Below are positions 7,891 to 11,081 of a stretch of DNA of 64,000 nt, piece after piece (the stretch's first letter is position 1; each line of letters opens with the position of its first letter). The stretch covers positions 4,061 to 68,060 of the forward strand of contig JAZQPJ010000034.1 in NCBI GenBank assembly GCA_045628525.1, read 5' to 3'. Source of the stretch: Bacteroidales bacterium. GTDB taxonomy: Bacteria > Bacteroidota > Bacteroidia > Bacteroidales > UBA3663. A model generated the notes under the pieces. It was not told the DNA's origin. It saw nothing but the letters and a program-made list of their open reading frames with translations, and made no database searches. A program made the position numbers and the translations under genes.

Positions 7891-8397
7891 ATGGATTATA
7901 AAGATATTGTTGATAAAGAGGCAAAAACTCTTATAATTTTGATATCATTATTACAAAAGACAGAGAACAAACCTATAGAAACAGATACTTTAAATAGATT
8001 ACGCTCAAAATATCATGTCCTTTCAGAAGAGAAACTTTCTATATTACTCTATGCTAAAACTAATGGCTGGATTGAAGCTCCAGAGTATGTAGAGTGTGAA
8101 GGGAAACAAATCTTCTTGGGTGTAGATAGTTCACAAATACAAAAAATGACTAAAATTACAAGGAAGGGTCTTCTAGAATTTGTTAGTTATCTGACCATAG
8201 TTAAGAAAACATTTAAAGAAGAAAACGAAAAAGAAGAACTTGTAAGTCTACAAAAGGAATCGATAAAAAACTCTATGATAATTTCTGAAAAAGCCCTAAA
8301 GACCTCTAATTCTGCTAAAATGGCAGCATGGTTATCTGCAATTTGTACACTGATAACCATGATTCTAGCAATTATAACTTTATTGCAACAATCATAA
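7891..8397 (+). CDS. Hypothetical protein with a C-terminal transmembrane anchor
   Basis: A 168-aa ORF in the AT-rich island. The hydrophobic tail is AAWLSAICTLITMILAIITLL. I recognised no family. Confidence 0.55.
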   Translation: MDYKDIVDKEAKTLIILISLLQKTENKPIETDTLNRLRSKYHVLSEEKLSILLYAKTNGWIEAPEYVECEGKQIFLGVDSSQIQKMTKITRKGLLEFVSYLTIVKKTFKEENEKEELVSLQKESIKNSMIISEKALKTSNSAKMAAWLSAICTLITMILAIITLLQQS

Positions 8398-8459
8398 GAT
8401 ATTGTTATTCGCTTTTTTTATATCTTCCTTTCATTCTCGAATAAATAGTGCAGTTACAT

Positions 8460-9596
8460 ATGAAAAAGATTTTATTTACATTTTTCTACTTTTTCCTCTC
8501 TTTGAATGCGCAAGTCGTTATTCAGATGGAAAAAGATGGCGGTGTATACAAAATTCCATGTCTTGTCAACGGAGCTAAAATGAAAATGATTTTTGACACA
8601 GGAGCGTTCGCTGTTTCTATGTCTAAAAATATGGCTGAGTATCTATACGAGAACGATTACTTGAAAAAAGAAGACTTTAGAGAATCTGGGTTGTCTAAAA
8701 CTGCAGATGGAAGTATTGTCAATAACATGAAAATTGTATTGAAAGAGATAGAGATTTCTGGTGTTCATCTTTCAAATGTTGAAGCAGTTGTCTTAGAATC
8801 TCAAAATGCACCATTATTATTCGGCCAAAGTGCAATCCAAAAATTAGGCCCTATTGAGATACATGATAATGTGTTAAAAATATTGAATCAAAAAGAATCT
8901 CTTTCAGATGAAGAAATAGACGAATTATTTAGACAAGCAAAGGAATATTCGGATGCTGGATTAGATCAAAAAGCTATAGATATATACATAAGATTGTATA
9001 ACATGGATTTGTTAAGCGATTATGGAAAATATAGTTTGGCAGGATTATGTATGAGAGTTGATGATGCTTCCAAAGCATTGAAAATAATAGATGAGATTAA
9101 AAGTTATGACTTTTTTAAGGAGAATGGTATAAATATTTATTCTCGATTAGGATGGATCTCTGAAGAAAACGATTTGTTGGATCAAGCAAAGGCTTATTAC
9201 AAATTAGCGTTTGACTTTCCAAATACGTCTAATGAGGATCGTGCCGATTATGCATATTACATTGGGTCTATAGCCAGTAGACAAAAACTACATAGAGAAG
9301 CCGCTACGAACTATCAAATGGCTATTTATTGTTTAGAATTGCACCATAACTTAAATCAAAATGACCTTGTTGATGAATGCCTTGGAAAAAAGAAAAACAA
9401 AAAAGTATCTCATAGAAGCGATTTTGTAGATAGGGCTGTATATTACTATTTTGAGGAACGATACCTCAATGGCGATTTTTCAAATGAAACGATGAAGTAC
9501 ACTATGGCAAAATTAGCTAAAAATGGTAATGCAGTTGCTATAAGAATGAGTAATTATATGGATTTTGATTGGAATCGATATCTGGATAATTATTAA
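8460..9596 (+). CDS. Secreted retropepsin-like aspartic protease domain fused to TPR-like repeats
   Basis: Signal peptide MKKILFTFFYFFLSLNA, a clan-AA motif MIFDTGAF and a helical repeat C-terminal half. The start was set at ATG 8460 rather than GTG 8448. Confidence 0.7.
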   Translation: MKKILFTFFYFFLSLNAQVVIQMEKDGGVYKIPCLVNGAKMKMIFDTGAFAVSMSKNMAEYLYENDYLKKEDFRESGLSKTADGSIVNNMKIVLKEIEISGVHLSNVEAVVLESQNAPLLFGQSAIQKLGPIEIHDNVLKILNQKESLSDEEIDELFRQAKEYSDAGLDQKAIDIYIRLYNMDLLSDYGKYSLAGLCMRVDDASKALKIIDEIKSYDFFKENGINIYSRLGWISEENDLLDQAKAYYKLAFDFPNTSNEDRADYAYYIGSIASRQKLHREAATNYQMAIYCLELHHNLNQNDLVDECLGKKKNKKVSHRSDFVDRAVYYYFEERYLNGDFSNETMKYTMAKLAKNGNAVAIRMSNYMDFDWNRYLDNY

Positions 9597-9635
9597 TTGC
9601 TGAACCGATTTTTGTCAAATGAAAGGTGGAAACGT

Positions 9636-11081
9636 ATGATGCTCAATATCGACGAAAGTCAGAACATAGAATACAAAGAGTCGTGGAACGATAAGTACCT
9701 TGAATGGATCTGTGGCTTTGCTAATGCGCAAGGCGGCAGGATATTCATTGGTGTAAATGATGCCCATGAGGTAGTCGGAGTGGCTGACAGCAAGCGGTTG
9801 ATGGAGGACATTCCGAATAAAATTGTGACTCACCTTGGTATTGTTGTTGACGTGAATCTGCATAAGGTAGAGGATCTCGACTATATTGAAATTACCGTAG
9901 AGCCATGCAGTGTGCCGATTAGTTATCGTGGTCATTATCATTATCGTAGCGGCAGTACAAAACAGGTGATGACGGGCATTGCCCTTGAAGATTTCTTGCT
10001 GAAAAAGATCGGTAAACAATGGGATGATTTGGAGAATCCTTCTGCAAATATCGACTGCATCGATCCTGAGGCAATAAAGTATTTCATCCGTAAGGGTATA
10101 AAGGCAAAACGCATTGCGGAAGATGCATTGGGAGATACAGCACAAGAGGTGTTGGAGAACTTGCATCTTATTTCTGACGATGGACATTTGCGTAATGCGG
10201 CCATATTGCTTTTTGCCAAAGATCCTCAGAAGTTTTTCTCTGGCATTCAGTTTAAGATTGGCAGATTTGGCAAGGATGAGGCAGATCTGATTTTCCAGGA
10301 TGTGGTTGAAGGCAATATTTTGCAGATGGCAGATAAGGTGATGGAACTACTGAAAGGTAAATATCTGAAGTCTCCTATTCATTATGAAGGTATGCAGCGT
10401 ATTGAACCGCTTGAGATACCCGAAGAAGCCTTGCGAGAAATGCTTTACAACTCCATCGTACACAAACTATACGTTGGGGCACCTATTCAGATGAAGGTCT
10501 TCGATAGTCATATTGAATTATGGAACGAAGGACTACTGCCATCTGGTTTCACGATAGAAACACTTTGGAAGAAGCATCTTTCAAGGCCAAGAAATATGAA
10601 GATTGCTGAAGTTTTCAACAAGGCAGGTTTCATTGAGGCGTGGGGCAGAGGATTCAAGAAGATTAGAGAAGGTTTTGAGAGCGAATCCCAAGAATTACCT
10701 GTATATGAAGAATTCTGTGGCGGTTTGCTTGCCACGATAACGCGACCTGATGTCGGTAAAAATGGCGGTAATGTCGGTGAAAGTGGCGGTAATGATGGCG
10801 GTAATGTCGGTAAAAGTGGCGGTAATGATGGCGGTAATGTCGGTAAAAGTGGCGGTAATAATGGCGGTAATGTCGGAAATGTAAAACTGACTGAAAGACA
10901 GCGTAAAATATATCATTTGGTTGCCGCTATACACAATCTTAGCGTCAAACAGATGGCGGTAATGCTGAATATTTCCGAACGAACTTTGGAGAGAGAATTG
11001 GCGGTAATGCAAAAAAAGGAAATTATCCGCCATGAAGGTAAGTCACGAACTGGTCACTGGGTGGTACTGGAGGTTATGTAG
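9636..11081 (+). CDS. AlbA_2/Schlafen-type putative DNA-binding ATPase-like protein with a C-terminal wHTH
   Basis: N-terminal ESQNIEYKESW...GFANAQGGRIFIGV (AlbA_2), a central HATPase_c_4-like region, a GGN-rich repeat linker and a C-terminal HTH-like segment. Confidence 0.75.
   Translation: MMLNIDESQNIEYKESWNDKYLEWICGFANAQGGRIFIGVNDAHEVVGVADSKRLMEDIPNKIVTHLGIVVDVNLHKVEDLDYIEITVEPCSVPISYRGHYHYRSGSTKQVMTGIALEDFLLKKIGKQWDDLENPSANIDCIDPEAIKYFIRKGIKAKRIAEDALGDTAQEVLENLHLISDDGHLRNAAILLFAKDPQKFFSGIQFKIGRFGKDEADLIFQDVVEGNILQMADKVMELLKGKYLKSPIHYEGMQRIEPLEIPEEALREMLYNSIVHKLYVGAPIQMKVFDSHIELWNEGLLPSGFTIETLWKKHLSRPRNMKIAEVFNKAGFIEAWGRGFKKIREGFESESQELPVYEEFCGGLLATITRPDVGKNGGNVGESGGNDGGNVGKSGGNDGGNVGKSGGNNGGNVGNVKLTERQRKIYHLVAAIHNLSVKQMAVMLNISERTLERELAVMQKKEIIRHEGKSRTGHWVVLEVM
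10750..10882. repeat. In-frame 33-bp tandem repeat (about 4 copies; GGCGGTAAT sub-repeat) encoding a GGN(V/D)G(K/E)S linker
   Basis: Direct reading. GGCGGTAAT recurs 9 times here and twice more downstream (about 10955 and about 11000). Confidence 0.85.

Follow-up and report, generated by a model that had tools for sequence, protein, structure and literature searches.

A probable mosaic defence-type island with a Schlafen-ATPase gene and a putatively exported retropepsin-TPR protease in a phosphate gene cluster of a Bacteroidales bacterium

The DNA analysed here is a stretch of 64,000 nucleotides (nt) from a Bacteroidales bacterium (contig JAZQPJ010000034.1), which we call the window. Between the phosphate transporter gene nptA and the genes for a phosphate-selective porin and a PiT transporter it contains an AT-rich segment of 4.7 kb with three co-oriented genes: orf168, a gene for an aspartic protease with tetratricopeptide repeats (TPR), and an AlbA_2 gene. 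Directly upstream of this trio lies a module of three further small genes with DUF3791- and DUF3990-type products. The genes of the segment and the elements belonging to them are the following.

6896-7114, plus strand: DUF3791 protein, PDC-M13A-like (Pfam DUF3791, E 1e-17; PADLOC PDC-M13A, E 8e-33)
7116-7610, plus strand: DUF3990 protein, PDC-M13B-like (Pfam DUF3990, E 2e-40; PADLOC PDC-M13B, E 2e-54)
7595-7801, plus strand: second small DUF3791-like protein, PDC-M13C-like (PADLOC PDC-M13C, E 3e-28; no Pfam match)
7842-7849, plus strand: TAAGTTTG, candidate Bacteroidetes -7 box (TAnnTTTG motif) for the orf168-protease-AlbA_2 unit
7891-8397, plus strand: orf168, 168 amino acids (aa), no Pfam family, C-terminal hydrophobic helix ...AAWLSAICTLITMILAIITLLQQS
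8460-9596, plus strand: protease-TPR gene (PROT), 378-382 aa, alternative GTG start at 8448
9636-11081, plus strand: AlbA_2 gene (Schlatpase-HTH), 481 aa, ATG 39 nt after the protease stop
10751-10900, plus strand: imperfect 33-nt (12+21 nt) tandem repeat, encoding a G/N-rich linker between the GHKL and helix-turn-helix (HTH) domains of the AlbA_2 protein

The segment stands out by its base composition. The sliding G+C content is 0.31-0.44 from about 6250 to about 11500 and 0.52-0.60 in both flanks. The minimum of the 1-kb windows, 0.317 at 8001-9000, is the lowest of the 64 kb and lies about 3.5 standard deviations under the mean (64-kb mean 0.510, standard deviation 0.055). It is bordered by the following features.

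4571-6253, minus strand: nptA, Na+/Pi cotransporter with PhoU domain, left flank (Pfam Na_Pi_cotrans, E 7e-60; G+C at third codon positions, GC3, 0.80)
6254-6895, no strand: AT-rich non-coding stretch with the left island edge (G+C 0.335)
11295-11414, plus strand: segment with the porin -7 box at 11403 and, at 11328-11360, a hairpin that with the T-run behind it resembles a terminator, from hairpin and motif scans
11453-12538, plus strand: phosphate-selective porin, right flank (Pfam Porin_O_P, E 9e-12; GC3 0.62)
12578-14848, plus strand: PiT/PHO4 transporter, right flank (Pfam PHO4, E 3e-26; GC3 0.74)

The flanking nptA is a host core gene. One genome per species was scanned with NptA, and the window proteins were mapped onto each of the 80 loci obtained. 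The closest locus comes from a Bacteroidales metagenome-assembled genome (L011), in which NptA is 96% identical at the aa level and 89% at the nt level. There the gene order is nptA, a 316-aa open reading frame (ORF) without Pfam family, porin, a 696-aa ORF, a 330-aa ORF and PiT, and no island gene is found between nptA and the porin gene. DUF3990, orf168 and the protease are present in none of the 80 loci. In four of these loci (L018, L051, L068, L090) PiT adjoins nptA; in several Prevotellaceae other than L011 it is directly divergent from nptA. The only window parts with a counterpart in L011 are 6313-6365, 6571-6610 and 11295-11414, and the inserted DNA thus spans roughly 6.6/6.7 to 11.3 kb; homology to the same island in another contig (L005) begins at 6743. 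The right-hand part, 11295-11414, is 80% identical to positions 9260-9379 of L011, which lie upstream of the 316-aa ORF there, and is probably a native segment that was present before the island. Because the island has no counterpart in L011 and the 79 further Bacteroidales nptA loci it is accessory, and judged by its deviant composition together with this absence from close relatives it is a horizontally acquired genomic island. No tRNA gene, no Rfam family and no flanking direct repeat came up in scans of the window. Look-ups of NptA, the protease and the AlbA_2 protein by exact sequence gave no match, probably owing to the choice of start codons or to the absence of this genome from the collection searched.

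A preliminary description of this DNA had proposed much of this picture, and its observations are confirmed. The AT-rich segment, the three co-oriented genes with the 39-nt spacing between protease and AlbA_2 gene, and the location between nptA and porin-PiT are borne out by the G+C profile, the ORFs and the Pfam matches of the flanking genes. Its domain calls (clan-AA protease, TPR-like repeats, AlbA_2/HATPase_c_4/winged HTH) agree with Pfam and the structure models, the accessory nature that it suspected is supported by the synteny comparison, and like its author we came across no integrase, tRNA or flanking direct repeat.

The island does not seem to have arrived in one piece. GC3 is 0.62-0.80 in the host genes, 0.47-0.59 in the DUF3791/DUF3990 module, 0.43 in the AlbA_2 gene, and 0.23 and 0.27 in orf168 and the protease gene. 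Since the codon-position G+C differs among the modules, three separate acquisitions are indicated: the DUF3990 module, orf168 together with the protease gene, and the AlbA_2 gene. Near-identical copies were found in two contexts. Three metagenome contigs (L005-L007) contain the full six-gene block (window 6743-11412, 95-98% nt identity), and three others (L001, L008, L009) contain the trio only, from window position 7850 to at least 10772 with 93% nt identity, located downstream of a GH10 xylanase gene and without the DUF3990 module. These three independent contigs all stop within the 33-nt repeat that encodes the linker of the AlbA_2 protein.

The DUF3990 module itself corresponds to PDC-M13, a computational candidate system: its three ORFs (6896-7801) are adjacent and co-oriented, and their matches follow the order of models A, B and C. 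It lies outside the stretch of the trio (7891-11081) and is separable from it, as the trio-only contigs show. The DUF3990 protein is presumably ADP-ribosyltransferase-like (ART-like), a predicted label that we take over from the preliminary description, and the module would be a separate ART-like candidate system. DUF3990 is mentioned once in a paper on an ART-like family (PMC7955679).

Taken as a whole, the segment from about 6743 to 11295 is best explained, with somewhat better than even confidence on our side, as a horizontally acquired mosaic insertion of the defence-island type, made up of three independently acquired modules. With the same confidence we place it within a cluster of the Pho regulon (phoR/phoB-like, nptA / island / porin, PiT) whose host is Prevotellaceae-like. 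With defence islands and with accessory genes inside BREX or type I restriction-modification (R-M) operons it shares the low G+C content, the strain-variable content, the juxtaposition of unrelated small modules and, around homologs, neighbours with abortive-infection (Abi), TIR, SIR2 and toxin-antitoxin (TA) domains; a YafQ-type TA pair 2 kb from the island is a further likeness. It differs from them in that no integrase, tRNA or repeats mark its borders and in that the site is a Pho-regulon gene cluster. The island as such is ordinary, one more strain-variable defence-type patch.

The AlbA_2 gene can be assigned to a known protein type. The product matches SLFN_AlbA_2 (E 7e-17) and HATPase_c_4 (E 3e-16) in Pfam, while matches to C-terminal HTH families are weak. 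This combination has recently been named Schlatpase, a supradomain of the Schlafen AlbA_2 domain joined to PF13749 (GHKL ATPase) that is found in 60,692 prokaryotic proteins, most of them small and with nothing else or a short C-terminal HTH; standalone copies occur in R-M operons (bioRxiv 10.64898/2026.05.29.728809). In the window protein both domains are present well above the cut-offs (PF04326 with 62.5 bits, cut-off 25.3; PF13749 with 59.5 bits, cut-off 26). Using the motif definitions of the same preprint, E(x)4(D/E)xK and the SAFAN box, we compared 11 homologs with identities down to 55%. E7-SQNI-E12-Y-K14, C26-GFANA-31 and R267-E268...Y271-N272 are invariant in all of them, as are K329, A330, G331, F332, W336, G337 and G339 of the motif KAGFIxxWGxG. 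By its motifs the AlbA_2 protein is a standalone Schlatpase with intact nuclease and ATPase motifs.

The characterised form is the Argonaute-fused SLFN-pAgo RzAgo, in which ATP binding leads to tetramerisation and the Schlafen domain cuts tRNA and aborts infection (bioRxiv 10.64898/2026.05.29.728809). The window protein has in common with it both domains, the E(x)4(D/E)xK motif (as ESQNIEYK) and the Schlafen-box-like CGFANA. With Schlatpases in general it shares the GHKL E/N and glycine-rich motifs and the short C-terminal HTH, the majority form in the preprint, and its relatives share their defence-island, R-M and BREX context. In contrast to RzAgo it contains no Argonaute, NACHT or other sensor domain, and ATP-dependent oligomerisation and tRNA cleavage are known only for RzAgo. 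Its variable G/N-rich repeat linker sets it apart from other Schlatpases. Near-identical copies differ in how many units of the encoding 33-nt repeat they contain, and within the family the linker is of variable length.

The AlbA_2 family is large (more than 6800 matches), and its close members turn up in different surroundings. A 77% identical homolog (P0124) is encoded between the PglX methyltransferase and PglZ genes of a BREX operon, a 64% identical one (P0131) in a type I R-M operon directly before HsdR, and a 70% identical one (P0127) beside ResIII and WYL genes; the protease is absent from all three contexts. IMG/VR contigs contain seven relatives, and there is a PHROG that the family matches. 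Judged by these neighbourhoods, among them BREX and R-M operons in which the protease is missing, the AlbA_2 gene behaves as an autonomous mobile defence-type gene and not as a partner of the protease. The window thus provides a clean natural example of a standalone Schlatpase-HTH with all catalytic motifs intact and with relatives in BREX and R-M operons.

The protease is the second gene of the trio. It matches gag-asp_proteas (E 1e-14) and Asp_protease_2 (E 4e-11) in Pfam, contains the motif IFDTGAF and scores 55 bits against PF13975 (cut-off 28). Against the NCBIfam model TIGR02281 (clan_AA_DTGA) it reaches 49.3 bits with a cut-off of 57.95, so that it is related to this family and by the NCBI rule not a member. 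D46-T47-G48-A49 and P118-L-L-x-G122 are invariant in 34 homologs. The N-terminus has the form of a signal peptide, MKKILFTFFYFFLSLNA|Q, which can be read by eye as MKK + ILFTFFYFFLSL + NA|Q and is common to the 34 homologs; the enzyme is therefore predicted to be exported, probably by the Sec pathway.

An AF2 model calculated from the 34 homologs has a pLDDT of 88. Its N-terminal domain (about residues 19-141) finds APRc (5c9f, E 2e-7) as best Foldseek match, followed by the Ddi1 RVP domain (E 5e-5), and residues 150-377 form an all-helical TPR solenoid with Foldseek matches to KLC and CTPR. The family profile matches consensus TPR structures with E 9e-37. According to the model, the protein is a retropepsin-like fold of clan AA fused to TPR.

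Secreted retropepsin-like proteases with roles in envelope stress have been described (PMC12239564). The window protease shares the fold with APRc of Rickettsia conorii (PDB 5c9f/5c9b), contains the DTG motif and the hydrophobic-hydrophobic-Gly motif and, like the secreted RloA enzymes of Pseudomonas (PMC12239564), would have an N-terminal signal peptide. Unlike these it is fused to a hypervariable TPR domain of about 230 aa (Sel1 in some relatives), and it is located in defence-type islands and not linked to ATP-grasp or transglutaminase genes. A protease domain combined with a TPR recognition domain, an analogy already drawn in the preliminary description, is also found in TPR-CHAT (Csx29) of type III-E CRISPR systems. 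TPR-CHAT is a cytoplasmic caspase-like cysteine protease regulated by a nucleic-acid sensor, whereas the window protein would be an exported aspartic protease without a sensor partner. In three loci of the family (L160, L164, L169) the protease gene is convergent with the gene of a TPR-CHAT protein of 1300-1500 aa.

More than 533 clusters belong to the protease family, which is found in gut and rumen Bacteroidales, almost always amid varying sets of Abi, TIR, SIR2 and ATPase genes, integrases or tRNAs. Phage genomes gave no hit at all, plasmids a single weak one and IMG/VR contigs also one, and by this near-absence the protease is not a phage or plasmid gene. To characterise its neighbours, ORFs were called crudely in 80 metagenome loci and clustered, which gave 65 protease groups at 90% identity. 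The neighbouring genes change from group to group and are often only 0-40 nt away on the same strand. Neighbours could be assessed for 46 groups, and at least 16 of these have one of the defence type (AbiH, AbiGi, SIR2_2, TIR_2, CAP12/Pycsar TIR, DUF4062, AAA_15/21 or AlbA_2); DUF2971 and KilA-N are further Pfam families among the neighbours. Altogether 63 immediate neighbours match 89 PADLOC families, including AbiH, PDC-S65, PDC-S35, ThsA, TIR effectors, PycTIR, SIR2 and bSEFIR, and 63 random control genes from nptA loci match 20, mostly via one Cas4-like protein. Genes for tyrosine recombinases are located directly upstream of the protease gene in L100, L103-L105, L115, L147 and L162/L167 (the 196-aa form is confirmed by Pfam, larger ones were judged by eye), and tRNA genes directly beside it in L003/L095, L101/L102 and L140/L142.

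The two halves of the protein evolve differently. Over the whole family, identity is 48-93% in the first 150 residues and 12-73% in the rest. Particularly instructive is a hot spot between two GH13 alpha-amylase-family genes (L123, L127, L128, L129, L135, L170, L122). Four of its loci, L123, L127, L128 and L129, are syntenic and share 82-92% identity in the GH13 and GH29 genes on either side and 74-90% in the protease domain. In the C-terminal (TPR) domain they share only 35-53%, and its divergence is two- to three-fold faster than that of the flanks. The slot upstream of the protease gene is taken by AlbA_2, by KilA-N or by a 253-aa ORF without annotation, or it is empty; the downstream slot holds DUF4062, cluster C44 or cluster C112. 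Because both flanking slots hold different genes in this syntenic locus, the protease gene appears as the constant element of a defence-gene hot spot. The similarity of the C-terminal domains does not track the type of the downstream gene, which argues against cognate pairs of protease and partner. We also considered that a conserved N-terminus followed by a variable C-terminus and a variable downstream gene might indicate a polymorphic toxin with its immunity gene. This reading was rejected, since what varies is a TPR/Sel1 solenoid and since the genes downstream encode large proteins of the cytoplasmic defence type that do not co-vary with the C-terminus.

Some loci depart from the common arrangement. 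Long protease variants of 464-640 aa occur in L152, L143, L157 and L159; Sel1 repeats in place of or besides TPR were confirmed in L143 (464 aa) and L152 (640 aa), and the scan of L159 gave protease domains only. In L161 two protease paralogs are arranged in tandem. A conserved 75-aa ORF (MELNELKEIWLSTFPNS...) is found 116-242 nt after protease homologs of 47-49% identity on human-gut contigs (L002, L003, L004, L091-L095) and has no counterpart in the window. An exported retropepsin-TPR family and its link to defence hot spots are described neither in PADLOC or PHROGs nor in the searchable literature, and on the strength of the sequence comparisons we regard both as a lead towards an undescribed family.

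The first gene of the trio, orf168, is rare. In an index of 5.8e9 proteins it has only two clusters (98% and 86% identity), and an exhaustive search of 1.84e9 representatives gave four full-length relatives with 32-35% identity. The family shares an N-terminal MEYxxIxxKELK, then WIDAPEY and KIAxSAKxAAWASAI, which runs into the terminal transmembrane helix. In the AF2 model (pLDDT 84) three helices and a beta-hairpin are followed by a long helix (91-167), and the best fold matches are the winged helices of PadR, MarR and SSV1 F-93, with weak E values of 0.015-0.1. On this model orf168 encodes a real, rare tail-anchored protein that is cytoplasmic in its bulk and winged-helix-like, and that would serve as a membrane-tethered adaptor binding nucleic acid or protein. 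Viral contigs, PHROGs, Pfam (above threshold) and NCBIfam gave no match, and in PADLOC-DB v2 only PycTM was hit (E 0.0025, 16 bits), too weak to use. In the sole readable context of a relative (L176/L177) the protease and AlbA_2 genes are both missing, and all ORFs in the neighbourhood of L176 are without an identifiable family. Homology to the tail-anchored proteins of cluster C13, encoded near some proteases, was considered and rejected (hhalign probability 18%); we treat them as analogous only.

As to transcription, the search for promoters used the -7 motif TAnnTTTG in place of sigma-70 motifs. A sigma-70 scan yielded 22 sites with 17.6 expected, which is not above chance, and is unsuited to Bacteroidetes. 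Three genes have a TAnnTTTG box 49-50 nt upstream: the first DUF3791 gene (box at 6847), orf168 (box at 7842) and the porin gene (box at 11403). The box TAAGTTTG, 49 nt 5´ of the orf168 ATG, is the sole intergenic one within 7802-11081; the motif scan found none before the protease or AlbA_2 gene. Homology with the trio copy in the GH10 context begins at 7850, next to the end of this box. The intergenic gaps are 62 nt between orf168 and the protease gene and 39 nt between the protease and AlbA_2 genes, and the sole strong terminator-like hairpin is the one at 11328-11360. With one -7 box, these short gaps and no internal terminator, the three genes are predicted by the motif search to be probably transcribed together. 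The second module (orf168 and protease) and the third (Schlatpase-HTH) would then have been joined into one transcription unit in this lineage.

This raises the question whether the trio is one new defence or abortive-infection system, as the preliminary description had suggested. An example would be an envelope sensor or protease whose signal reaches the cytoplasmic Schlafen nuclease via the membrane-tethered winged-helix protein. The single candidate promoter with short gaps and no internal terminator would fit, and so would the block 7850-10772 being intact in two genomic contexts. AlbA_2-type genes are among the commonest neighbours of the protease family and adjoin its members in no fewer than three arrangements that are independent of each other (L107/L110; L123/L135/L170; the window), and small tail-anchored C13 proteins follow the protease in L147, L156 and L162/L167. 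However, the three genes are found together only within DNA that is 93-98% identical, and diverged homologs of each occur without the other two: an orf168 relative of 35% identity has neither partner, Schlatpase homologs of 64-77% identity lack the protease, and among protease homologs of 47-53% identity the ones with examined contexts (L002, L003 and relatives) have neither AlbA_2 nor orf168 beside them. GC3 differs as well (0.25 for orf168 and the protease versus 0.43 for AlbA_2), the TPR domain of the protease does not co-vary with the type of neighbour, and the orf168 and C13 families are not significantly related (the hhalign value given above). AlbA_2 keeps no fixed order or strand with respect to the protease, which fits shared residence in the same islands. 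Finally, orf168 offers almost no periplasmic residues to a periplasmic protease. Since the co-occurrence is confined to near-identical DNA, the diverged homologs are separate and the base composition differs, the three genes appear not to be a co-evolved system; we consider a single three-gene system improbable, and the signalling scheme given as its example equally so. The preliminary description had named as evidence against its own proposal that the genes never co-occur elsewhere, and beyond copies of the same island this is essentially what was found. Its suggestion of a defence locus thus stands in part: the setting is defence-like (the PDC-M13 match, the BREX and R-M relatives of AlbA_2, the PADLOC-rich neighbours of the protease), and the single three-gene system is not upheld, because the diverged homologs are separate and GC3 differs. 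The PADLOC comparison that it recommended gave the PDC-M13 match in the neighbouring module, no match for the protease and only the weak PycTM hit for orf168.

How the genes would work can be outlined as follows. The Schlatpase-HTH would act alone, in the way of the Schlafen-GHKL part of SLFN-pAgo: switched by ATP, its Schlafen RNase would attack tRNA or other RNA and so bring about growth arrest of the infected cell. Its HTH domain would be a nucleic-acid sensor or an autoregulator. The protease would be exported by Sec, dimerise like other retropepsins and cut a periplasmic or surface target chosen by the fast-evolving TPR domain, most plausibly a foreign protein such as a phage entry protein or an incoming toxin. 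It might even be that the protease-TPR/Sel1 family represents a new type of envelope immunity, in which a periplasmic protease recognises foreign proteins with its fast-evolving repeat domain and cuts them and, in this island, together with a cytoplasmic Schlafen-type nuclease in one operon, provides a two-layer defence; we put this forward tentatively, as a reading that is unlikely but deserves attention, and phage ejection or tail proteins and periplasm-acting toxins are no less tentative as examples of its substrates. If it is true that the protease family guards the envelope against phages or toxins, this would be a new mode of bacterial immunity, and the family could usefully mark hot spots of defence genes in a phylum that is important in the gut.

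There is a small but real chance that none of this is defence. The protease might be an enzyme of envelope maintenance or stress like RloA, the AlbA_2-HTH protein a transcription regulator, as in the classical annotation COG2865, orf168 a membrane regulator and the island ordinary cargo. The existence of secreted envelope-stress proteases of this type (PMC12239564) would agree with that, as would the C-terminal HTH of the AlbA_2 protein, the lack of a PADLOC assignment for protease and orf168, and the synteny of the protease in the GH13 locus, where with flanks of 82-92% identity it is almost core-like. Such housekeeping roles are difficult to reconcile with the strong enrichment of defence families immediately beside the protease, with a TPR domain that is hypervariable in syntenic orthologs and thus suggests an arms-race-type target, and with a Schlatpase whose nuclease and ATPase motifs are invariant and whose close homologs are nested in BREX and R-M operons. 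Very unlikely, in our view, is a function of the protease in interbacterial conflict, either neutralising periplasm-acting toxins like the Bacteroidales acquired immunity islands or as a secreted antagonist. An exported protease with a hypervariable recognition domain would suit this role, in L147, L162 and L167 the protease gene has a small gene for a tyrosine recombinase directly upstream, and small exported proteins or lipoproteins are neighbours in some loci (clusters C49, C161, C75). A resemblance to recombinase-associated immunity islands is conceivable. However, no type VI secretion system and no known immunity or toxin families were seen among the protease neighbours, which carry mainly cytoplasmic domains of the anti-phage type.

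Several observations also weigh against the mosaic defence-type island. The Pfam profile scan of the window proteins gave no integrase in or beside the island, and neither tRNA nor direct repeats point to a mechanism of insertion. The flanks of L005 beyond the island match nothing available. The trio travels together in two contexts and looks co-transcribed, so that a lineage-specific functional link is possible. PDC-M13 is itself a candidate system, and the protease has no match in PADLOC-DB v2 or PHROGs. As an exported enzyme it would differ from the known cytoplasmic defence proteases, and it might be no more than a passenger, or an anchor that is conserved within variable regions. The neighbour statistics derive from crude ORFs on short metagenome contigs with controls from one locus type, and the tie of these genes to phage resistance is a predicted one.

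The surroundings of the island show that it is not the only change at this site. Three ORFs of L011 have no counterpart in the window, which indicates that the phosphate cluster has been rearranged as well as invaded: the 696- and 330-aa ORFs (4102-7117) between porin and PiT, which by eye look like polyphosphate kinase and exopolyphosphatase, and the 316-aa ORF (8395-9345). A second patch of low G+C, at 3984-4499 on the plus strand, encodes a 79-aa ORF followed by a 90-aa YafQ/RelE-type toxin (Pfam E 2e-30). This type II toxin-antitoxin pair sits between the gene of a PhoB-like response regulator (3005-3772) and nptA and is missing in L011, where the PhoB-like regulator comes 73 nt after nptA; the phosphate locus is plastic beyond the island, as this pair shows. 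Downstream of the AlbA_2 gene a 55-aa ORF (11106-11273, plus strand) is probably not a gene, because it is frame-split in the 90-95% identical copy of L005.

Finally, short repeats were observed in the leaders of the phosphate genes. The nptA leader contains a tandem 7-nt ATTACAG repeat (6258-6300), and a 15-mer of this repeat also occurs at 12354-12375 in the porin gene, at 13461-13482 in PiT and at 57897-57911, with eight matches observed and 0.06 expected. The copy inside the porin gene encodes LQITDY, which is also present in the porin of L011, and the PiT copy is not conserved there. The nptA leader of L011 has another degenerate short tandem repeat with TTCGATT/ATTCGAT-like units, and the porin leader of the window has a 15-nt direct repeat (11419-11447). 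These leader repeats may be regulatory elements of the Pho-regulon genes.

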